Source: an uncultured bacterium
GTDB taxonomy: Bacteria > Actinomycetota > Acidimicrobiia > Spongiisociales > UBA5794
Assembly: GCA_963801165.1 (NCBI GenBank)
Contig: CAWDDT010000011.1
Coordinates: 224,001-288,000 of the forward strand
Direction of reading: 5' to 3'
Length of the DNA stretch: 64,000 nt
Part shown: positions 1,983 to 62,998 of the stretch, one piece after another
How the letters are laid out: the number at the start of each line of letters is the position of its first letter
How positions within the stretch are numbered: position 1 is the first letter of the stretch
The notes under the pieces: generated by a model
The model's input: only the letters and a program-made list of their open reading frames with translations
The model's database searches: none
Told to the model about the DNA's origin: nothing
Translations under genes and position numbers: made by a program

Positions 1983-3500
1983 CTACGGTTGTTCGATTGC
2001 GAAGCTGTCGCTGTAGCTCGTCGTGGAGCCAACGAATGTGACTTGCAGCGCCTCGGGAGTCATCGTCAACAATGCGTATCCCCGTCCCGCATCGGGTGAA
2101 TTGGCTCCGAGCCAGGTCGCCAGGTAACCCAGCTCGGGGTCGGACGCGTTGATGCTGTACATGTCGTTGCCGCCGGCGTTGCCGACGATCACAAACACAG
2201 ATCCCGCACCCTTTGTGTAGATGTTGTCGCTGCCGTCATCCACCACACACTCGGTGCGGAAGGTCCCGGGCGTGGCACAGGTGATCTGCTTGGAGCGCTG
2301 GTAGTTGTGTTCGTGGCCGTGCAGGATGAGATCGACCTTCTTGTCCAAGAGCAAGTCGTAGACGTCGCTGCCCACCTCGCAGCCCTTCACACCTGCCGTC
2401 ACGCATGGTTTGTGCATGCCGACGATCACCCATTCGATCCCCTTCGCCCGGGCGTCATCGATGGTCGCCTCCAGCCATTGATAGTGGCTGCTGCCCACCC
2501 CGTAGTCGTAGCTCTCGCCGTCGACCTGGTTGTCGGCCCCGATCATGATGATGCGAGCAAGCTTGTCGACATCGAAGTAATACTCAGCGGCATAGGTGCC
2601 GGTGGAGCTCATCCGATCGGGGAGACAGGCGGCGAAGTTGCCGATGTAGCCGTTGACCCGGTCGTCATCCTCGTGGTTGCCAACCAACAGCTCGACGGGG
2701 AATTCCGTACCGAGGTAGCCCTTGACGTAGTCGCACCACTGGGACTCGGTGAGATTGCTATATGAGAGGTCACCCAGGGCGAGCAGAAACTCCGCATCGC
2801 TCGCCGCCATCGACGTAAAGGTGGCATCGGTGAGGCTGGTCGCCCCGAAGTCACCGCCGGCGGCGAAGGTGACCCCGCCCGACCCGCTCAGGCCAAGTGC
2901 CCTGGCAAGGAAGGTCGCCATCTGTTCGCGTGTGACGAAATCGGCCGGGCAGAACCGATCGTTGACCGGCGGGTTACAGCCCTTGGTGATCCCGGACGCG
3001 GCCAATGCCTCGATGTCGGCTGCGAACACCGAGCCGTCGTCGTCGACAAACGCATTGCCGCTCTCGTCAGCGGCCAGCCCGAAGGCCCGCACCAGGAACG
3101 CGGCCATCTGGCCCCGGGTCACCACATCGCCGGGGCAATAGCGGTCATTGACCGGCGGGTTGCAGCCCCTGGTGACCCCCGCGGCGGCGAGACGAGAAAT
3201 GTCGGCGTCGAACACCGAGCCGTCGTCATCGACGAACGGATCAGCGGTAGCCGCCGACAGGCCGAAGGCTCGGCTCAAGAATGCAGCCATCTGACCACGC
3301 GTCACCACATCGCCGGGGCAGAAACGGTCATTGACCGGCGGATTGCAGCCCCGGGTGATCCCGGCGGCGGCAATCGCCTCGATAGACGGCTCATGTATGG
3401 ATCCGTCGTCGTCGCTGAACGTCCCGGTCGCCAGCGCCGGGCCGACGCTCAGCACTGAGGCGAGCACGACCAGCACAGCAATCGTCATCCGGAGACGCAT
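1983..3500 (-). CDS. Secreted SLH-domain metallophosphoesterase (purple acid phosphatase-like)
   Basis: Signal peptide; three F.DDDGS...GIT.GCNPPVNDR.CP...TR.QMA.FL.RA repeats; GDFG, GDLSY, GNHE, MH, GHEH calcineurin-like motifs. Confidence 0.88.
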   Translation of the reverse strand: MRLRMTIAVLVVLASVLSVGPALATGTFSDDDGSIHEPSIEAIAAAGITRGCNPPVNDRFCPGDVVTRGQMAAFLSRAFGLSAATADPFVDDDGSVFDADISRLAAAGVTRGCNPPVNDRYCPGDVVTRGQMAAFLVRAFGLAADESGNAFVDDDGSVFAADIEALAASGITKGCNPPVNDRFCPADFVTREQMATFLARALGLSGSGGVTFAAGGDFGATSLTDATFTSMAASDAEFLLALGDLSYSNLTESQWCDYVKGYLGTEFPVELLVGNHEDDDRVNGYIGNFAACLPDRMSSTGTYAAEYYFDVDKLARIIMIGADNQVDGESYDYGVGSSHYQWLEATIDDARAKGIEWVIVGMHKPCVTAGVKGCEVGSDVYDLLLDKKVDLILHGHEHNYQRSKQITCATPGTFRTECVVDDGSDNIYTKGAGSVFVIVGNAGGNDMYSINASDPELGYLATWLGANSPDAGRGYALLTMTPEALQVTFVGSTTSYSDSFAIEQP

Positions 3501-3540
3501 AGGAGCGAGCGTAGCCAAAGCGATGTTCCTACTCGTGCGA

Positions 3541-3752
3541 GTAGTAGCCCTCCCGTTACGGGAGGGCGGGGCCAGACCCGATCGAAGGGAGGGACTGAAC
3601 CGGGAGGGGGGCAAAACCAACGGCGACCGCCGCGCGTCCTCCCCCCTCGGACGGCCCGGGGGGCCGCCCGATCCCCCCGAAATGGGCGAATCACTGCTGC
3701 TCTCTCCCAATCGGCGGGGCCGGACCCGACCGAGGGAGGGGGGATCACTGTT
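3541..3752 (+). repeat. Family A repeat doublet plus partial unit
   Basis: gccctcccgttacgggagggcggggccagacccg...cccctcggacggcccggggggccgcccgatccccccgaaatgggcgaatcactgct. Confidence 0.9.
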
Positions 3753-3819
3753 TGCTCTTGCCGGAATCGGCGCTGGTACGCTCGCGGGGTTGGACCTGAT
3801 GCCCGTGGGAGGAGGCTCG

Positions 3820-4263
3820 TTGCAGGTCACAGTGCAGACCGAGATCGATGCGCCGGCGGATGCCGTCTTCGACTACATCGCCGATCTCTCCAACAACCCC
3901 AACTGGCAGAGCGGTGTCGAGACGACCATGTGGACCTCGCCTCCTCCGGTTGCGGTTGGATCCACCTGTGAGCAGACGCTCGACAGTGGGACGGTCGTCG
4001 AGTACGTGGTGACCGCGCTCTTACCCCGACGATCCATCACGATCGAAACCAGACGAGGCGCCGTGATCCCCACCACGGTCACCAGGACCGTCCAGGTCCT
4101 CAACGAAGCGAAGAGCCGCGTGCGGATGGACCTGACCGGCCACCCTCGCGGCTGGCGTCGTCTCACCGCTCCACTGGTGCCGCGGGCGATCCGGGGGGCG
4201 ATCGGCTCCGACTACCGCCGTCTCAAGCGAGTCCTGGAAGCTGCTCAGACACCGGAGGAGTAG
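3820..4263 (+). CDS. SRPBCC (START-like / polyketide cyclase) family protein
   Basis: TTG start after GGAGG; VQTEIDAPADAVFDYIADLSNNPNWQSGV...DYRRLKRVLE. Confidence 0.8.
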   Translation: MQVTVQTEIDAPADAVFDYIADLSNNPNWQSGVETTMWTSPPPVAVGSTCEQTLDSGTVVEYVVTALLPRRSITIETRRGAVIPTTVTRTVQVLNEAKSRVRMDLTGHPRGWRRLTAPLVPRAIRGAIGSDYRRLKRVLEAAQTPEE

Positions 4264-4296
4264 CCCGGTAGAGGACCTTTGTGTTCGGCGGTCCCG

Positions 4297-4941
4297 TCAG
4301 GACGCGCCCAGAACCCGGCGGATTTCGGCGGCAAGTGCCGCGCCGAGGCGCTTGTGGCTCTCGGCGTCGAGATGCACGCCATCGGCCGCGTCGACCGAGG
4401 CCACTGTTCCGGCATCGAAGACGGGGCAATCCCGAAGCTCACCGAGAGTCGTGTAGTGCTCAGCAAGGTGCAGAGACTCGTTACGCGCCTTGCCGAATCC
4501 CCACAGCAAGGATCGTCTCGTCGCCTTCCCCAACGGGGGCGGGGCAACAATCAGCACCGCGGGCGCCTGCCCGGCGGGGCCGCAGCCGCTGGAGAGGGCA
4601 ATATCCACGAGGGCGCCTACGCCGAGGGCGATCTCGGGGGCTTTCACCCGGAAGTAGCGCTTGAGGTCGTTGGTGCCGAGCATGATGACTACCAAGTCGA
4701 CCGGGGAATGCGAGGCGAGACAGGGGCCCAGATAGGAACGACCGTTGAGACCGGCGCCAAAAGGATCATCCCAGTTGCTCGTGCGACCCGGGAGACCCTC
4801 CTCGATCACGACGAAACCGGACCCCAGCGCCTGCTGCAACACGCCGGGCCAGCGGACGTCTCTCGGGAAGCGACCGCCGGAATCGACCACATACCCGTAT
4901 GTGTTGGAGTCGCCGTAGCAAAGGACCGTACGTGTGCTCAT
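4297..4941 (-). CDS. SGNH/GDSL hydrolase (arylesterase-like)
   Basis: CYGDSNTYG, EEGLPGRT, MLGTND, DGVH blocks. Confidence 0.92.
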   Translation of the reverse strand: MSTRTVLCYGDSNTYGYVVDSGGRFPRDVRWPGVLQQALGSGFVVIEEGLPGRTSNWDDPFGAGLNGRSYLGPCLASHSPVDLVVIMLGTNDLKRYFRVKAPEIALGVGALVDIALSSGCGPAGQAPAVLIVAPPPLGKATRRSLLWGFGKARNESLHLAEHYTTLGELRDCPVFDAGTVASVDAADGVHLDAESHKRLGAALAAEIRRVLGAS

Positions 4942-4990: not shown

Positions 4991-5761
4991 CTACCCCAGC
5001 AGCAGCTTCTCTACGTCATCTCGTAGTGCCGCAGTGGTGGCGATGAAGCCGGGGACGAGCGGGTTTTCCTTGTTCCAGGTCGGCGTCGAGCCGTCCTTGA
5101 GCACTGCCCAGCCGCCGGCTGCGCGAAGCAGCGCGACGCCGGCGGCGAGATCCCACTCGTTCTTGGGCACGAGCGTCCAGGTGGCGTCGAGCCGTCCGGC
5201 GGCGACCAGCGACAACTTGTAGGCCACCGATCCCATCGGCACGACATGAAACGGGCCGCCCTCAAAGCGCTCCCACTCGCCCCGCCTCATCTCGGAACGG
5301 CTCGCCCCCACCCGCGCTCCCTCCAGGCTGGTCATGCCGGAAACGGGGTTGGGCCCGTTGTACACCAAACCGTCGTCGACCGTCCCGGTGATCCTCTCGC
5401 CGGTCGCCGGGTTGTGGATACCGCCTGCTACCGGCAACCCGTCTTCGATGAGACCGATCGACACACACCACTCCGGAATCCCCTCGACGAACTCCCGGGT
5501 CCCGTCGATGGGATCGACAATCCAGACCCGCTTTCTGCCGAGGCGCTCCTTGTCGTCGACGCTCTCCTCAGACAGCCATCCCTCCCCCGACTCGGGGAGG
5601 ACGCGCCGCATCTCGGCATCGACCAGCTCGTCGGCCTCGGTCACCGGATCGCCGCCTTCCTTGCGTCGAGCTGCGATCCGGCCCGGCGTGAAGTCGTCGA
5701 GCACGTCCAGTGCCGCGTCGAGCGCGGCGTTGATACGATCAAGATCTGAGGTGTGGCCCAC
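4991..5761 (-). CDS. Inositol monophosphatase / CysQ-like 3'(2'),5'-bisphosphate nucleotidase
   Basis: DPVTEAD, LSEE, WIVDPIDGTREF, EWDLAAG; GTG start overlaps upstream TAG. Confidence 0.88.
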   Translation of the reverse strand: MGHTSDLDRINAALDAALDVLDDFTPGRIAARRKEGGDPVTEADELVDAEMRRVLPESGEGWLSEESVDDKERLGRKRVWIVDPIDGTREFVEGIPEWCVSIGLIEDGLPVAGGIHNPATGERITGTVDDGLVYNGPNPVSGMTSLEGARVGASRSEMRRGEWERFEGGPFHVVPMGSVAYKLSLVAAGRLDATWTLVPKNEWDLAAGVALLRAAGGWAVLKDGSTPTWNKENPLVPGFIATTAALRDDVEKLLLG

Positions 5762-6438
5762 TAGTTCCCCTGTACGTTCTCGAGGCGCGCCATCCTGCCC
5801 GATGACCCCCAGCTGGCCACCACCAGCCCCGCGGCGTACGCGGTCAGCACCGCAAGCGCGGCCACCTGCCCGAAGTCCTCGGCAAACAACCACTCCCGGT
5901 TGATCCCGAACACGGAAATGGCGTTGACCGGGCCAACGAACACACCCACGACGAACAAGATCGCGATGAGGCGCACAACAACAGGGCGCTCTTCGAGCGA
6001 GGCGCTCCGATATGCCGCCAAAACCAATCCCCCGGCGATCACGGCCAGCGCCAGGAACAGCGACGCCAGATTGATGAACCCCGAGGAGACATGCAGGACA
6101 CTCTCCAGGCGCTGGGTAATCGGATTGGCAACGTCGTCCCACCAGCCGGCGTCGATCACGATGTGACCGAGTGTCAGCAACGACAACAGCAGCGCCAGCA
6201 CCCACATGCTCCGGCTACGGATCCTGTAGCCCACGTACACAAGAGCCACGATGCTGATCAGCTTGTACAGGATCGACAGGGCATTCAGCGGCCCCGCGTT
6301 TAGGCCGATCTCCGACGCATAGTCAACGCCGGCGGCCCACAGTGCCGCAGCCATGAGCGCCAGGCCGGCGGCCAGTGCCGCCTGGAGCGCTCGCCCTTGT
6401 AACCGCAATGATCCCCCCGAGGTGTCGAATTCGTTCAC
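5761..6438 (-). CDS. Hypothetical polytopic membrane protein
   Basis: About six hydrophobic segments; stop overlaps the start of the cysQ-like gene. Confidence 0.7.
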   Translation of the reverse strand: MNEFDTSGGSLRLQGRALQAALAAGLALMAAALWAAGVDYASEIGLNAGPLNALSILYKLISIVALVYVGYRIRSRSMWVLALLLSLLTLGHIVIDAGWWDDVANPITQRLESVLHVSSGFINLASLFLALAVIAGGLVLAAYRSASLEERPVVVRLIAILFVVGVFVGPVNAISVFGINREWLFAEDFGQVAALAVLTAYAAGLVVASWGSSGRMARLENVQGN

Positions 6439-6547
6439 GAGGCGCCAATGTACCGTGCGGTGGAGCCAACATCACTCGCCATGACCCATCGTCTGTCGGG
6501 TGCACTGCGCCACGGCCCCAGAGCCTTCTGCCACTATCGTCCACTCG

Positions 6548-7679: not shown

Positions 7680-8501
7680 ATGCGGCGGCTCGCTCTCATC
7701 ATCTCCCTGGTCATGCTGACGGCGGCGTGCTCGAGCAACAGCAGCGACGAGACCACAAGGTCCGCGGCTGCACCGACAACGACCGTCGCCACTACCACCA
7801 CCGTCGCGACAACGACGACCACGGCAACAACAACCACAGCCGCCCAGGACACGACAACCAGCGCCGCTCCGGCTGGGGACCTCGCGTTTGAAACCATCAC
7901 CGGCACGCCCCCCGACGCGTTCGACAGCTTCTCCGCCACCATGACGATGAAGATGCACGCACAGGACCTCGACATCGAAGCCACCTCGGAGGGCGTGTGG
8001 ACGGCCGACGGTTTCCAGTGCACGATCACCTCTGCTCTCGGTGGATTGAACATCAGCGAATCGGTCATCGGCACACCGCAGCAACTCTGGTACGACCAGG
8101 GCAACGGCTACGAGCCGTCGGATCTCCTCGACCCGGGGGCGCAGAGCGTCATGTCGAGCTGCCCGACCTCTCCCCTGTTCTGGGCGAGCTTCACCACCGA
8201 CAACCTGGGTGACGTCACCGGCGCCGAAACCACCTACAACGGCAGAGCCGCCTACAAGGCCGACCTCTCCGACCTCCTCGGCGCACTGGGCGGTCTCGGC
8301 CTGGCCGATCTCCAGGGAGCCGACATCAATGACATGACGGTCTGGATCGACGCCGAGACCAGGACGATCATCGCACTCACGGCCGAGCTTCAGATGACCG
8401 CCGAAGCGCTGACGGGCGCCGCAGGGGACGCCGTCACGATGACGATGGAAGTCGCTCTGGACCAGTTCAACGACCCATCCCTAACCATCAACGAGCCCTA
8501 A
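7680..8501 (+). CDS. Lipoprotein with Thr-rich linker (possible LolA/LppX-like fold)
   Basis: Lipobox LTAAC, poly-Thr linker, beta-rich C-terminal domain; AAGGA RBS. Confidence 0.75.
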   Translation: MRRLALIISLVMLTAACSSNSSDETTRSAAAPTTTVATTTTVATTTTTATTTTAAQDTTTSAAPAGDLAFETITGTPPDAFDSFSATMTMKMHAQDLDIEATSEGVWTADGFQCTITSALGGLNISESVIGTPQQLWYDQGNGYEPSDLLDPGAQSVMSSCPTSPLFWASFTTDNLGDVTGAETTYNGRAAYKADLSDLLGALGGLGLADLQGADINDMTVWIDAETRTIIALTAELQMTAEALTGAAGDAVTMTMEVALDQFNDPSLTINEP

Positions 8502-8504
8502 CCA

Positions 8505-9001
8505 CAGCAAGCAGCAATCCCCCCTCGGGGGAATCGGACAGGCCTCCCGGGCCGTCCGAGGGGGAAGAACAAACAGCGGCCGCCGTTGATGTTTGCCCCC
8601 TCCCGGTCCAGCCCCTCCCTGCGGTCGGGTCTGGCCCCGCCCTCCCACAAGGGGAGGGCCACTACTCGCGCAACTGCCGATCTGTCGCTGAGAACAAGCA
8701 GCAATCCCCCCATTTCGGGGGGATCGCACGGCCCCCCGGGCCGTCCGACGGGGGAAGAACAAACGGCGCCCGCCGTTGATCGACGGCTCGTCTTGTGAGC
8801 CGGAACCAAGCAGCAATCCCCCCATTTCGGGGGGATCGCACGGCCCCCCGGGCCGTCCGACGGGGGAAGAACAAACGACGCCCGCCGTTGATCGACGGCT
8901 CGTCTTGTGAGCCGGAACCAAGCAGCAATCCCCCCATTTCGGGGGGATCGGACGGCCTCTGGGCCGTCCGAGGGGGGAAGGGCGAACAGCGCTCGCCGTT
9001 G
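8505..9001 (-). repeat. Family A repeat array (reverse orientation) including a 112-bp tandem duplication
   Basis: caagcagcaatccccccatttcggggggatcg starts at 8695, 8807 and 8919 (period 112); a further doublet at about 8510-8665. Confidence 0.93.
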
Positions 9002-9047
9002 TCCCGCTCCCCTTGAACACCAATCTCGGTCGCCGCATGCTGGTGAC

Positions 9048-9398
9048 ATGGACAAGAGACTCATCGCGTTCGCTCGCGAGCATCGCAAGAATCCCACGTG
9101 GGCGGAAACTACCTTGTGGTCAGATCTGCGCGCCGGGCAGTTCGGCCACAAATTCAGACGCCAACAACCGATCGGCCCCTACATCGTCGACTTCGTCTGC
9201 TTCGAGAAGCGCCTCATCATCGAAGTCGACGGGCTATCACACGACATAGATGACTCTCAACGCGACCGTATCCGACAACGGTGGCTCGAGGACCATGGAT
9301 ACGTGGTGCTCCGCTTCAACGACGACGAGGTCCACGACGAACGCGACGAAGTCGGTGATGCGATAGCGGCAGTGCTCGATCAAGAATCACCGACATAG
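9048..9398 (+). CDS. DUF559 / Vsr-like endonuclease domain protein
   Basis: AREHRKNPTWAETTLW, FRRQQPIGPYIVDF, LIIEVDGLSH, RDRIRQRWLEDHGYVVLRF. Confidence 0.9.
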   Translation: MDKRLIAFAREHRKNPTWAETTLWSDLRAGQFGHKFRRQQPIGPYIVDFVCFEKRLIIEVDGLSHDIDDSQRDRIRQRWLEDHGYVVLRFNDDEVHDERDEVGDAIAAVLDQESPT

Positions 9399-9450
9399 CG
9401 CCGGTCGGACAGAACAATCCGCCCCAACACCCGATCCATGTGGGCTGCGT

Positions 9451-9740
9451 CAACGGCGAGCGCCGCCCGTCCTTCCCCCCCGAACGGCCCGGAGGGCCGT
9501 CCGATCCCCCCGAAATGGGGGGATCACTTCTTGCAGCCCTCCACTGGAGGGAGGGCGGGGACAGACCCGACCGCAGGGAGGGACTGGACCGGAAGGGGGA
9601 CAAAACCAACGGCGGCCGCCGCCCGTTCTCCCCCCTCGGACGGCCCAGGGGCCGCCCGATCCCCCCACCTCGGGGGGATCACTACTCCCCGGCACCCGAT
9701 CCATCGCTACGCGAATAACCCTCCCCCGGAGGGAGGGTGG
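9451..9740 (+). repeat. Family A repeat array (forward orientation), inverted relative to 8505-9001
   Basis: 9451-9524 is a near reverse complement of 8928-9001; followed by another doublet and a ccctccc-N5-gggaggg hairpin. Confidence 0.92.
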
Positions 9741-9814
9741 GACGTGACGGCGGGCGGGCATTTCGAGCTTCGTAGCCGGGGGGCCGGGGTTCGTGGCATC
9801 ATGAGGTGGCTCCC

Positions 9815-11038
9815 ATGGAACAAACGACCCCACCTCAATCGCTGCGTGTCATTGCGTCGTCCGAGATCTACCTGAAATCCCGGCGCACCCGGCGTCACTT
9901 CATGCCGATCTTGCGCGCCAACCTGGAGGCAGCCCTGGGCGCCGCGGTTCCGGACGCGAAGGTGCGTCAGCGGGGCAACCAGGAGTTCGAGGTCAGAACC
10001 GGGGACCTGACCACCGCGGCTGAAGCCGCGGCGACAGTGTTCGGGGTCGACCGCATCGATCGCGTCCTGCCGATCGATGCAACCAGCCTCGACCAGATCA
10101 CGCGGGACGTGGTCCGGCTGGCGGCTCCTTCAGTGGACAACCGCAAGTTCGCGGTACGAGTGCGCCGCAGCGGCGACCACGACTGGCGCTCGCACGACGC
10201 CGAGGTGGCCATCGGCAGCGCCCTCATCGACAGATCCGCAGGGGTCGACCTCAGCAACCCCGACTTCACCGTGCGGGTACGTGTCGAAGGCACTGCCGGC
10301 GTCGTCGTTGCCGAGTCGTGGCGCGGTCCCGGCGGGCTGCCCGTGGGAACGCAATCGCCGTGCCTCGTCATGCTCTCCGGTGGCATCGACTCGCCGGTGG
10401 CGGCATGGATGATGATGAGGCGCGGCTGCCCGATCGACATGCTCCACTTCCAGCTCGAGTGCAACCAAGCCGACCATGCCCTCGCCGTCGGCCACCAGCT
10501 CGCCACCCGCTGGGGTCACGGCGCCGGCATCAACCTGCACGTCGTCGACTTCGAGCCCGTGAAGAAAGAACTCGGAGTATCGGCTCAGGCCAAGTACCGG
10601 CAGGTGCTGCTCAAGCAGCTGATGACAGAGGCCGCGCACCGGGTCGCCCGGGAGTTGCAGATCCCCCTGCTCGTTACCGGTGACTCGTTGGGCCAGGTCT
10701 CGTCCCAGACCGCCGCCAACCTCATCGAGATCGACAAATACGCACAGGCTCCCGTGCTCCGACCGCTGCTTGCCATGACCAAGCAAGAGATCGTCGATCG
10801 GGCGCGGGTGATCGGCACCTACGAGCTGTCGACCCGAGCCCGCGAGGTATGCGACCTCTCGGAAGGCAAACCCGTGGCAACCGCCGCCGCCACCTACCGG
10901 CTCCGCAAAGGGATGAGCCTTCTGCGCACGGGGCTGATCGACGATGCCATTGCCACATGGGAGTCGGTGCCGGCAGCCGACTGGTTCCCCAGTGTGCCGC
11001 TGACACCCCAAAGCAGCGCTTCCCGACAAAATCCTTGA
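9815..11038 (+). CDS. thiI: tRNA 4-thiouridine sulfurtransferase ThiI (THUMP + PP-loop, no rhodanese domain)
   Basis: EIYLKS, FAVRVRR, VDLSNPD, GPGGLPVG, LSGGIDSPVA, TGDSLGQVSSQT, LRPL. Confidence 0.9.
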   Translation: MEQTTPPQSLRVIASSEIYLKSRRTRRHFMPILRANLEAALGAAVPDAKVRQRGNQEFEVRTGDLTTAAEAAATVFGVDRIDRVLPIDATSLDQITRDVVRLAAPSVDNRKFAVRVRRSGDHDWRSHDAEVAIGSALIDRSAGVDLSNPDFTVRVRVEGTAGVVVAESWRGPGGLPVGTQSPCLVMLSGGIDSPVAAWMMMRRGCPIDMLHFQLECNQADHALAVGHQLATRWGHGAGINLHVVDFEPVKKELGVSAQAKYRQVLLKQLMTEAAHRVARELQIPLLVTGDSLGQVSSQTAANLIEIDKYAQAPVLRPLLAMTKQEIVDRARVIGTYELSTRAREVCDLSEGKPVATAAATYRLRKGMSLLRTGLIDDAIATWESVPAADWFPSVPLTPQSSASRQNP

Positions 11039-20142: not shown

Positions 20143-20475
20143 TTCTTCTCCCTCTGGGAGAAGTGCCGAGCGCAGCAAAGGCGAGCCACTCTTTCCTTCT
20201 CCCTCTGGGAGAAGTGCCGAGCGCAGCGAAGGCGATGAGGGCCTCGCGAAGAAACGCCCTCCCCGACCCGGCCTGCGGCCCGTCGACCCCCCCAAAGGCA
20301 GGATGAACCTCTGGGAGAAGTGCCGAGCGCAGCAAAGGCGAGCCACTCTTTCCTTCTCCCTCTGGGAGAAGTGCCGAGCGCAGCGAAGGCGATGAGGGCC
20401 TCGCGAGAAAACGCCCTCCCCGACCCGGCCTGCGGCCGATAGACCATCCCAAAGGGAGGATGAGGGTGAGGGCCC
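20143..20475. repeat. Family B palindromic repeat array (157-bp tandem duplication) between nuoI and nuoJ
   Basis: cctctgggagaagtgccgagcgcagc occurs four times; the block starting at 20151 repeats at 20308. Confidence 0.92.
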
Positions 20476-25887: not shown

Positions 25888-25942
25888 CTTCCCTCTCCCT
25901 CTGGGAGAGGATGGCGAGCGAAGCGAAGCCAGGTGAGGGCCT
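25888..25942. repeat. Single family B unit between nuoE and nuoF
   Basis: cctctccctctgggagagg-atggcgagcgaagcgaagccag-gtgagggcc. Confidence 0.85.
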
Positions 25943-62603: not shown

Positions 62604-62998
62604 GAATTCATCCTCCCTCTGGGAGGATCGACCGGCCGAAGGCCTGGTCGAGGAGGGCCTTCGCACTCCACACCACCCCCGGCCAACACCCCCGCACTCC
62701 CACAAGGCCCCCATCGCCATCGCTCCGCTCGACACTTCCCCCAAAGGGGGAAGAAAGAAGTTGGCCCGGCATCGCTCGCTCGGCACTCCCCCCAGATTGG
62801 AATTCATCCTCCCTCTGGGAGGATCGACCGGCCGAAGGCCTGGTCGAGGAGGGCCTTCGCACTCCACACCACCCCCGGCCAACACCCCCGCACTCCCACA
62901 AGGCCCCCATCGCCATCGCTCCGCTCGACACTTCCCCCAAAGGGGGAAGAAAGAAGTTGGCCCGGCATCGCTCGCTCGGCACTTCCCGGAGGGGGAGG
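62604..62998. repeat. Family B repeat doublet duplicated in tandem (period 196 bp)
   Basis: gaattcatcctccctctgggaggatcgaccggccgaaggcctggtcgaggaggg starts at 62604 and 62800. Confidence 0.93.

Follow-up and report, generated by a model that had tools for sequence, protein, structure and literature searches.

Why does a small nuclease gene stand alone between inward-facing copies of a hairpin repeat that is scattered over the rest of the same genome? The question arises from one locus of the window, the whole 64,000-nt stretch of DNA that was analysed, in which the ORF at 9048-9398 (+) is a stand-alone, YcjD-like DUF559 gene (PF04480) for a 116-aa protein with the Vsr-fold PD-(D/E)XK architecture. 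The gene is intergenic, between a lipoprotein gene and thiI, and not in an intron, an intein or a conserved target gene, and no methyltransferase gene stands beside it. The repeat units around it follow one design, a pyrimidine arm, a loop, a purine arm and a mirrored purine block (the third block), with a second hairpin inside loop 2. Loop 1 is 3-5 nt long, loop 2, itself a hairpin, is 20-26 nt long, and a purpose-written hairpin finder marked the three-block design in all units of the locus.

Two inner units of ~85 nt face inward to the gene with their third blocks on the gene-facing side, one at 8919-9003 (+), which is the left end of the cassette, and the other at 9451-9533 (-), which is inverted to the first and is the right end; the inverted-repeat finder reported the inner units over 39 nt at 92% (I6) and over 30 nt at 87% (I9). 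The left spacer (9004-9047, +) is unique in the genome and presumably carries the start signals of the gene, and a scan found no sigma-70-type promoter near the gene, a result that says little in this phylum. The right spacer (9399-9450, +) is unique except for one 21-nt match elsewhere on the contig. Four units are stacked on the left side, with starts at 8508, 8695, 8807 and 8919, and two on the right, at 9451-9533 and 9607-9686. The second and third left units (8695-8918, +) are 112 nt each and form a tandem duplicate (8695-8806 and 8807-8918, 99%), each consisting of hairpin 1 (ATCCCCCC-loop-GGGGGGAT) and hairpin 2, together with a G-block and a tail of two small hairpins. Outside them lies a composite doublet (8508-8665, +), in which a TCCCCC-arm hairpin at 8518-8532, its third block rightward, faces a CCCTCCC-arm hairpin at 8640-8658, its third block leftward. 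Its inverted copy is the outer right doublet (9536-9686, -), with hairpin 1 at 9659-9679, and the two composites are 86% complementary over 114 nt (I1, 8546-8659 and 9536-9649). A further CCCTCCC-arm hairpin at 9719-9737 (+) directly precedes the conserved thiI upstream motif. The PF04480 match and the inverted-repeat finder thus confirm the arrangement described in an earlier note on this DNA, a DUF559 gene between inward-facing repeat copies with further copies on both sides.

With Watson-Crick hairpins modelled, the unit at 8695-8806 folds at -30.8 kcal/mol (z -2.6) and the inner left unit at -27.1 kcal/mol (z -4.7), and none of 200 shuffles of the latter folds as well. A 12-mer present at 9428 and 9693 was considered as a target-site duplication around the right array and dropped; the genome has five copies of it, units elsewhere are followed by a similar stretch, and the 12-mer probably belongs to the unit tail.

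In E. coli, repeats of the BoxC/PIT/triplex-motif class have been on record since the 1990s. The accessible text of Holder et al. (2015, PMC4666352) places BoxC, PIT (potential intrastrand triplex) and the TMECO triplex motif in both E. coli and over 260 further genomes. As described there, these elements resemble our units in the three-block design, in being intergenic, dispersed and multi-copy at unstable loci and, sometimes, in forming inward-facing inverted pairs of two subtypes. The match to this published design had been missed by the earlier note. The arms differ, being TCCCCCC and CCCTCCC here, and so do the extra tail hairpins and the long tandem arrays. Section 15 of the paper, as available, gives loop limits of 0-10 nt for PIT (Hoyne's search) and 1-6 nt for ITxF, which loop 2 exceeds, so that by the published search rules the units are a variant of the design and not a member. 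The accessible part also says that a mobility function had never come to light in the vicinity of these repeats, and it contains no occurrence of ycjD or of a nuclease.

The 116-aa protein matches the PF04480 profile with 116.2 bits (E 8.4e-34; cut-off 20.6) over positions 2-108 of 109, which places it in the DUF559 family. Another profile, PF18741, matches weakly, and the profile search found no match of the protein to the Vsr profile PF03852 or to GIY-YIG. To our knowledge, DUF559 is a very widespread family whose structure has been solved and whose function is not known. Two further members of the family with this size are YcjD of E. coli and NGO0050 of N. gonorrhoeae (PDB 3HRL); we know of no function for either, and a literature search returned nothing on their repeat context. 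The predicted structure (pLDDT 84.8) aligns to 3HRL with a TM-score of 0.85 (sequence match E 1.8e-18), the second-best structural match is the I-Bth0305I catalytic domain (3R3P; E 1.8e-4, TM-score 0.78 on the target, 25% identity), and Vsr itself (1VSR) is matched with an E-value of 0.016 and a TM-score of 0.55 on the query. According to this model, the protein shares the restriction-endonuclease-like fold of the solved DUF559 members. D48, E59, D61 and H65 are invariant in an alignment of 18 sequences, and by analogy with Vsr they are candidate catalytic residues. By these residues and the predicted fold, the protein looks like an active nuclease.

What is the repeat doing in the rest of the genome? 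The hairpin-1 pattern is not a product of chance: it occurs eight times in the window, where 100 shuffles give an expectation of 0.00, and 48 times genome-wide, and the repeat unit gives 59 blastn matches across the genome. Pyrimidine-arm/purine-arm hairpins occupy 265 sites at 141 loci, dispersed, intergenic and multi-copy, and short repeats make up 1.44% of the genome. Only about 20 of the 141 loci hold at least four hairpins, and four of these are the four flanks of the two full-length DUF559 genes, paralogues of 48% identity that sit in hairpin arrays of differing families (TCCCCCC/CCCTCCC arms at C11, CTTCTCCC/CCTCTCCC arms at C7). The extra arm types CTTCCCCC and TCCTCCC occur without a DUF559 gene of their own.

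The units of the locus itself recur at about 25 gene-less loci, and away from the locus the copies keep a single orientation per array. In the window, a gene-less array of the same repeat family (1540-1949, -) alternates three TCCCCCC-arm units (-) with two CCCTCCC-arm hairpins (+), forming inward-facing doublets, and a single gene-less doublet (3548-3698, -) combines a CCCTCCC-arm hairpin with a slightly decayed TCCCCCC-arm unit. The earlier note had described doublets at about 1625-1755, 1810-1945 and 3547-3690 as one unit facing itself; they are real inward-facing pairs, but each consists of two hairpin types, CCCTCCC-arm and TCCCCCC-arm. No decayed DUF559 was found beside the gene-less arrays (tblastn with E up to 50; profile against all six frames), the only hits being the two full-length genes themselves and a pair of long fusion genes. 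As for other candidate partners, this 98%-complete genome holds no PF01797 (Y1_Tnp) match that would indicate a RAYT, and its GIY-YIG matches are frames of 583 and 615 aa.

The units might instead be transcribed and act as structured small RNAs. An Rfam scan of 8300-9900 gave sub-threshold matches only, two of which overlap units, whalefall-1 (25.6 bits, gathering 37) and COG2908 RNA (24.1, 58.7). Since both fall under the curated thresholds and the units are found in either orientation, are arrayed in tandem and behave as insertion polymorphisms, we regard an RNA role as scarcely credible.

We surveyed 80 DUF559 loci from many phyla, scoring their gaps with the pyrimidine-arm/purine-arm hairpin finder. 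This finder replaced flank-versus-flank blastn as the general test; with their short and diverged ends, only 8 of 25 loci had yielded long repeats to blastn. Hairpins were present in 112 of 133 gaps adjacent to DUF559 and in 11 of 331 other gaps of the same loci (odds ratio 155), an enrichment for which the earlier note had proposed to test, and 74 of 78 loci were hairpin-positive. Of the closest upstream copies, 34 in 52 loci are directed at the gene, as are 33 in 50 of the closest downstream ones; an inverted inward pair surrounds the gene in 26 of 55, and an inverted pair facing the gene is the usual layout. The two ends agree in arm class in 45 of 69 loci (11.3 expected). The earlier note had also proposed to compare repeat subtype with the phylogeny of the protein, and arm class does follow it, with 51 changes on the DUF559 tree; the lowest count among 300 within-phylum shuffles was 54. 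Copies that flank DUF559 in other phyla bear almost the motif of E. coli. By contrast, none of 10 long AbiEi-DUF559 fusion genes has such a hairpin within 300 nt.

The hairpins lie close to the matched DUF559 region (median 59 nt before and 31 nt after), and a scan of our region gave 8 terminator-like sites where 1.4 were expected. Both observations would suit cis-acting signals, that is, terminators, insulators or stem-loops that stabilise mRNA, acting as a shield around a potentially toxic nuclease gene, with the likeness to dispersed repeats being secondary. Such signals would hardly account for the same units at the gene-less loci here or for discrete insertions in E. coli, and a terminator needs neither a mirrored third block nor conservation of a DNA motif across phyla. 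Moreover, earlier work cited in the accessible text of PMC4666352 saw neither promoter nor terminator activity in PIT elements. We consider a purely cis-acting role very improbable.

The survey bears equally on the possibility that the repeats gather at unstable, permissive sites, or are moved by another enzyme, and that DUF559 is an unrelated small gene for repair or defence, carried like the cargo of a composite element. Mere carriage leaves unexplained why DUF559 is the enclosed gene in nearly all of the 78 loci, over many phyla, with hairpins in so few of the other gaps, why the two ends share an arm class, and why the long fusion genes are hairpin-free. It draws support from repeat-rich genomes that lack the gene. 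Among the relatives, the median number of pattern matches is 30.5 in DUF559-positive genomes (n = 26) and 8 in the others (n = 35), a correlation of copy number with DUF559 that the earlier note had proposed to look for and that is confounded by shared descent. Four repeat-rich relatives, G029, G039, G050 and G054, with 36, 428, 199 and 277 matches, yielded no stand-alone DUF559 (PF04480). Such genomes had been named in the earlier note as evidence against a partnership, as had a RAYT or GIY-YIG partner in its place; the former were thus found in part, but neither a RAYT (Y1_Tnp) nor a small GIY-YIG gene was detected in the four, and GIY-YIG matches in the genomes searched were only frames of 537-806 aa. 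Because the four are drafts, 87-95% complete and with arrays at contig ends, a DUF559 cassette could be missed in them. Five ORFs beside the G054 arrays were scanned for a rival partner enzyme; three encode ordinary proteins (BioY, MOSC, glyoxalase), and the other two matched no family. The sampled neighbours therefore offer no rival enzyme. Carriage of an unrelated gene would further agree with the variable content of the thiI-upstream site over the genus, with the persistence of BoxC in E. coli without ycjD, and with the report, in the accessible text of PMC4666352, that triplex-motif loci are rearrangement hot spots. On balance we think it decidedly unlikely.

E. coli K-12 contains both partners side by side. 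A TMECO stretch (1351169-1351259) lies ~150 nt downstream of the stop of ycjD (1351407-1351760), so that ycjD adjoins BoxC, and the stop itself falls within a degenerate TMECO copy. All 5426 E. coli genomes carry at least one copy of BoxC and 2048 of them are without ycjD, indicating that the enzyme is not needed for short-term persistence of the repeat. In a spread sample of E. coli, the median number of BoxC places is 20 with the ycjD locus (n = 37) and 7 without it (n = 22), and this correlation, too, is confounded by shared descent. Two gene-less inserts of K-12, of 74 nt and 183 nt, occupy sites that are both empty in a ycjD-less strain, and one of them is bordered by an 8-nt direct repeat; the gene-less copies in E. 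coli are discrete insertions. According to the accessible text of PMC12817139, ycjD takes the place of eefRABCD in phylogroups A, B1 and C as well as in a further two sequence types, which its authors read as at least two independent losses of eef. The same paper has ycjD present independently in the ST69 and ST182 lineages.

At the Acidimicrobiia locus, the cassette is gained or lost as a unit, and its site is empty in relatives. Empty sites in close relatives, which the earlier note had proposed to look for, were found in seven members of the same genus and in a sibling strain. In the seven relatives, the lipoprotein gene adjoins thiI with neither DUF559 nor such a hairpin between them; in a further relative, G005, a repeat unit is at the same site and the gene is absent. 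Metagenome contigs of the sibling strain, with flanks ~99.3% identical, join 8714 to 9670 and skip 955 nt (8715-9669), namely what remains of unit 1, both units 2 and 3, the gene and the right unit, plus one half of the right doublet. The joints were 8714 to 9670 in run X2 and 8701 to 9657 in run X6, and in runs X5 and X6 the gene body had a depth of 0 with the flanks covered. The breakpoints lie inside copies of hairpin 1 (8704-8724 and 9659-9679), and a single hairpin is left after joining. A doublet is already at the site in the empty allele.

This presence/absence polymorphism with conserved flanks resembles that of homing genes such as I-Bth0305I. The DUF559 gene with its ends might be a mobile unit whose nuclease cuts intact hairpins, break repair then copying the gene in, so that the gene-less repeats would be targets and not products. 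Exactly one intact hairpin at the empty-allele junction, the doublet already in place and the gene-less unit of G005 are consistent with homing, as are the fold near the I-Bth0305I catalytic domain and, in the accessible text of PMC12817139, the presence of ycjD in place of eefRABCD in several E. coli lineages. However, genomes hold only one to a few diverged DUF559 copies, as with the two paralogues here, and there is no sign of recent spread of the gene within a genome into the many available hairpins. The gene-less units of E. coli, being discrete insertions, one with its 8-nt direct repeat, also need a mobility source of their own. Unlike I-Bth0305I, the DUF559 gene is free-standing between repeats in intergenic DNA and its product has no extra DNA-binding domain. 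Homing is unlikely in our estimate.

We lean, with modest confidence, towards a repeat-DUF559-repeat cassette in which the nuclease most likely recognises the folded repeats on its own flanks and cuts them. The gene for a small Vsr-fold nuclease, bracketed by inward-facing BoxC/PIT-like (triplex-motif-like) hairpin repeats, would then encode an enzyme that acts on these repeats, as RAYT does on REP and the GIY-YIG nuclease Ssn on NTS. Such cutting would account for the lasting association of the gene with its repeat family, and for the dispersal and instability of those units, doublets and arrays of the family that lack the gene. The earlier note had proposed a unit-nuclease-unit element with dispersed derivatives; its layout holds across phyla, and gene-less copies and doublets are indeed scattered. 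The action of the nuclease on the hairpins we infer, together with the position of the cut and an outcome that may be repeat spread, movement of the cassette or destabilisation of the site only. What was observed is the architecture and its recurrence across phyla, the gene-less dispersal, the indel polymorphism with its breakpoint in hairpin 1 and the copy-number correlations. A RAYT-like role of the protein is suggested by association alone, and we know of no obvious route by which a hydrolytic PD-(D/E)XK nuclease could achieve strand transfer unaided.

A wider idea, which we offer as a tentative possibility, is that DUF559/YcjD proteins are the missing enzymes of BoxC/PIT/triplex-type repeats throughout bacteria and cut at the first hairpin, with hairpin-to-hairpin joining excising or inserting the segment between; the 955-nt polymorphism suggests such excision or insertion. 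If true, this would give DUF559/YcjD a function and BoxC/PIT/triplex-type repeats an origin, and would explain how the repeats spread and why their loci are unstable. With both partners present in E. coli K-12, and with natural lineages that lack ycjD, a test of the idea would cost little.

Among known systems, RAYT-REP (REP/REPIN/BIME; REPs bear a GTAG or CGTC tag) has the same layout, a low-copy gene between inverted copies of its own dispersed hairpin repeat, with gene-less singlets, inverted doublets and arrays elsewhere and with two paralogues each having a repeat family of its own. The enzyme here is a PD-(D/E)XK (Vsr-fold) hydrolase and not an HUH Y1 transposase, and our repeats are pyrimidine/purine hairpins with a mirrored block. 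Vsr is alike in fold class, but the DUF559 protein lacks a PF03852 match and its gene a partner cytosine methyltransferase gene. We found no paper that links DUF559 to BoxC/PIT-type repeats. The accessible text of PMC11893778, in which neither DUF559 nor Vsr occurs, describes Ssn as a single-domain GIY-YIG site-specific ssDNA nuclease that cuts folded single-stranded DNA beside a hairpin and is encoded in the layout NTS-ssnA-NTS, with NTS/SRM hairpin repeats. NTS has hundreds of dispersed copies, and different Ssn homologues go with different variants of the repeat. Ssn and DUF559 belong to different nuclease superfamilies and their repeats differ in design, but in both, as far as that text goes, a small single-domain nuclease gene is flanked by its own hairpin repeat, and by this analogy Ssn-NTS is the closest precedent in print for the working of such a pair. 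Given a specific partnership, DUF559 could also become a source of practically useful nucleases that are specific for a structure or a sequence, as was the case with Ssn. If our reading is true, DUF559 would add a third enzyme class to the systems of a domesticated nuclease plus a dispersed hairpin repeat, a PD-(D/E)XK-based nuclease-repeat partnership beside RAYT-REP and Ssn-NTS.

The window lies on contig C11 of a 4.55-Mb host genome (64% G+C, 13 contigs, 98% complete), and the product of the DUF559 gene (9048-9398, +), 116 aa long, matches Pfam DUF559 from end to end (E 8.4e-34). Repeat comparison placed four units to the left of the gene, starting at 8508, 8695, 8807 and 8919 (+), and two to its right, at 9451-9533 and 9607-9686 (-); the inner units are oriented toward one another across the gene, and the outer composites (114 nt, 86%) are likewise inverted. 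Each unit consists of a pyrimidine arm, a short loop, a complementary purine arm, a second hairpin and a G-block mirroring the purine arm. The pattern of hairpin 1, the first hairpin of the unit, has 8 matches in the window versus 0 expected, and 48 genome-wide. Coordinates, pattern counts and the Pfam match agree with the arrangement described in the earlier note, a DUF559 gene between inward-facing repeat copies with more stacked outside. The short doublets, taken there for paired units of the same design, do face inward, but their partners are two hairpin types, one with a CCCTCCC arm and the other with a TCCCCCC arm. The predicted single-stranded fold of the inner left unit, as DNA, is a pair of neighbouring hairpins (-27.1 kcal/mol, z -4.7). 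That the units act as structured RNA we regard as extremely unlikely. Two sub-threshold Rfam matches overlap repeat units, one to the whalefall-1 RNA at 9625-9681 (-) (25.6 bits vs 37) and the other to the COG2908 RNA at 9699-9742 (-) (24.1 bits vs 58.7), and some metagenome-derived 'RNA motifs' may be DNA repeats like these units.

A hairpin finder requiring a perfect stem of at least 6 and a pyrimidine arm, with an optional mirrored block within 45 nt, marked 265 sites at 141 loci genome-wide, 33 of them with at least 3 sites. The arrays are mosaics of few arm types, and short repeats (depth of at least 3) make up only 1.44% of the genome. The unit itself has 59 blastn matches at ~25 loci, with a single orientation inside each gene-less array. 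The ~20 largest arrays include four that constitute all four flanks of two DUF559 genes. It is very unlikely that the units are cis-acting signals. The window has further arrays of triplex-type hairpins, at 20145-20371, 25892-25910 and 62611-62949. Family 2 (CTTCTCCC / CCTCTCCC arms), present in the window, is the one on either side of the second DUF559 gene (contig C7), and a third array type, in which TCCTCCC alternates with CTTCCCCC, has no DUF559 gene of its own in the host genome. The many ~520-bp repeat blocks seen in the genome self-comparison are coding; one, at 2867-3427, falls inside an ORF (1983-3830, -) whose 615-aa product has S-layer homology (SLH) and metallophosphoesterase domains, and the blocks are therefore probably an SLH module common to a family of paralogues.

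The lipoprotein and thiI genes are neighbours in seven relatives from the same genus, and both DUF559 and a triplex-type hairpin are missing between them. The gap measures 79 nt in G014, contains a decayed unit of the other repeat family in G005 and carries a small reverse-strand ORF in five other same-genus relatives. The gap of L127 (from G010) holds a tandem array of ~55-nt units of unrelated sequence. This intergenic site is a general hot spot for repeat DNA. A CGTAGCC ... TCGTGGCATCATG motif just 5' of thiI (9770-9805 in the window, and in the relatives' stretches L122-L127 and L132) is conserved across the genus, possibly as a promoter or leader, and marks the right-hand boundary of the variable region. 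The gene-bearing allele is present in the metagenome runs X1 and X2. A 787-nt contig from X2 joins 8714 to 9670, with a short side of 42 nt and 11 letters that fit both sides, and in a 696-nt contig from X6, a run from a different habitat and study, the joint runs from 8701 to 9657 and is weaker, with a short side of only 27 nt. Each joint omits 955 nt. Gene-body bins in X5 and X6 have a depth of 0 to 0.3 while the flanks, which differ from the window by ~0.7%, are covered 5- to 9-fold. Both breakpoints fall within hairpin 1, one in a + unit and the other in an inverted - unit, and joining leaves one complete hairpin. The empty sites sought in relatives thus exist, both in the seven genomes and in the X2 and X6 contigs, and DUF559 with its repeats forms a block inserted or deleted as a unit; the allele lacking 955 nt may be an excision, a deletion or an unfilled target.

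D48, E59, D61 and H65 are invariant in an alignment of eighteen relatives of the 116-aa protein, whose nearest solved sequence is 3HRL (E 1.8e-18). In a structure search the AlphaFold model (pLDDT 84.8) matched 3HRL with a TM-score of 0.85 and the homing endonuclease I-Bth0305I (catalytic domain) with 0.78; the Vsr match was weaker. The I-Bth0305I likeness speaks for a homing-type variant, which we consider doubtful. Three genes of the host genome match DUF559. Besides the window's gene there is a second full-length one, on C7, which shares 48% identity with it and has on either side hairpin repeats of another family, found at 43 loci. In the third, the match covers the C-terminal part of a 346-aa AbiEi_4 fusion protein, near whose gene no triplex-type hairpin was found. 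Likewise, all 10 long fusion-type genes in a control set (eleven examined, one dropped for having no open frame) lack triplex-type hairpins within 300 nt. Since the examined genes have no hairpin repeats nearby, the long fusion proteins are set apart as a separate branch of the DUF559 family. Long proteins of this kind, 300-350 aa and ending in a partial DUF559 match, lie in L114-L120 (seven, from the unpublished genome G039) and at 5409-6446 (-) of L002 (the one in the host genome); a Pfam scan, of L002 only, placed an AbiEi_4 domain at the start.

Within the order, a single-protein search gave a DUF559 match (E <=0.001) in 33/61 genomes, the window's included, many of the matches lying at contig ends; by our reading of the match table, 26/61 carry a stand-alone gene (E <=1e-10). 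Long flank-to-flank repeats were present in 8 of the 25 loci examined, and the flanks, judged by eye, carry C-run/G-run hairpins of varied sequence. The cassettes of L005, L012 and L013 (G008, G001 and G012) seem, by eye alone, to lie directly beside a tRNA-like stretch, a hint that sites close to tRNAs may be preferred. A profile-guided scan with one genome per species yielded 598 relatives, and we studied the best 80, from many phyla, with a crude gene calling that greedily took the longest ORFs, and with every intergenic gap of the same loci as the control. Perfect hairpins of at least 7 bp occur at 5.7 per kb in gaps next to DUF559 versus 1.4 in other gaps. Pyrimidine/purine hairpins occupy 112/133 and 11/331 of these gaps, respectively (odds ratio 155; 74/78 loci positive), which bears out the proposed enrichment of hairpin repeats beside DUF559. 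The layout is regular: the third block, the mirrored G-block, points toward the gene in the nearest upstream copy at 34/52 loci and in the nearest downstream copy at 33/50, an inverted inward-facing pair surrounds the gene at 26/55, and both ends share an arm class at 45/69 loci versus 11.3 expected. On a quick 101-protein tree, arm class changes 51 times; the lowest counts among 300 shuffles of each kind were 57 when labels moved freely and 54 when they stayed within a phylum. The expected match of repeat subtype to DUF559 phylogeny is only suggestive, because related, non-independent rows carry the same labels.

Repeat number follows DUF559 presence among the 61 order genomes. The median count of a loose hairpin pattern is 30.5 in the 26 genomes with a stand-alone gene versus 8 in the other 35 (p 2e-4), in line with the predicted correlation, with counts inflated by overlapping matches and related genomes not independent; leaving out the window's genome and two unpublished ones (25 vs 33 genomes) gives p 3e-5. 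Split at 30 matches, a threshold picked after seeing the data, the proportions are 13/17 and 13/44. Some DUF559 matches are partial or contain a stop codon (G003, G015, G042 and G053). Repeat-rich genomes without the gene, which the earlier note had named as counter-evidence, do occur: the Pfam model found no stand-alone DUF559 in the incomplete drafts G029 (36 matches), G050 (199, unpublished), G054 (277) and G039 (428, unpublished, with only long fusion forms found). In G054 the hairpin arrays are real, many of them at contig ends. These genomes, incomplete as they are, count against strict dependence; the replacement partner named with them, a RAYT or small GIY-YIG gene, was found in none of the four. 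The host genome likewise lacks Y1_Tnp/RAYT. Passive co-location, or carriage of the gene as cargo, is unlikely.

In E. coli, the BoxC triplex-motif repeat was reportedly first recognised close to envM (fabI), which adjoins ycjD. The ycjD stop codon of K-12 lies inside a decayed motif copy, followed by a partial ycjD 3'-end duplicate and a full TMECO. The duplicate (4262-4407 of the K-12 stretch L113, between ycjD and the full BoxC copy) looks like a scar left by a past rearrangement at this repeat. The TMECO stretch occurs at 21 places in K-12 and, across 5426 genomes, at a median of 17; ycjD is present in 3378 of these genomes. In APEC O2-211, a ycjD-less example, the eefRABCD operon occupies the fabI-sapF interval in place of ycjD, a general rule according to a portion of PMC12817139, and the edge of the K-12-specific segment lies ~25 nt from TMECO. 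In an evenly spaced sample (one plasmid-sized record dropped), BoxC/TMECO places number 13-29 (median 20) in 37 records with the ycjD locus and 1-16 (median 7) in 22 chromosomes without it (Mann-Whitney p 1e-9), a contrast that tracks phylogroups and so does not represent independent events. Of three K-12 TMECO loci checked, a ycjD-less strain has one filled and the other two empty; the K-12 inserts at these two measure 74 nt, with an 8-nt direct repeat on the flanks, and 183 nt, holding an inward-facing doublet. Because of these empty sites, gene-less copies are discrete insertions.

The association, architecture and polymorphism are solid. By analogy with the RAYT-REP and Ssn-NTS systems, the DUF559 nuclease would act on its own flanking repeats, a partnership that we favour at somewhat better than even chances; the homing, co-location, cis-signal and RNA readings together take the remainder. 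A role of DUF559 in spreading the repeats is a tentative extension, perhaps half as probable as the partnership itself. We found no report in the open-access literature linking DUF559 or YcjD to triplex-type repeats. A section of PMC4666352 (Holder et al. 2015) finds no mobility functions near TMECO sites, and 'ycjD', 'nuclease' and 'endonuclease' are all absent from its text. The nearest precedent is the Ssn-NTS pair, as presented in part of PMC11893778. In repeat design, the units of the window share the three-block order of the BoxC / PIT / triplex-motif (TMECO) repeats set out in a section of Holder et al. 2015 (PMC4666352), whereas their loop 2 of 20-26 nt lies beyond the limits defining those motifs; we therefore term the units triplex-motif-like, with no claim of triplex folding.
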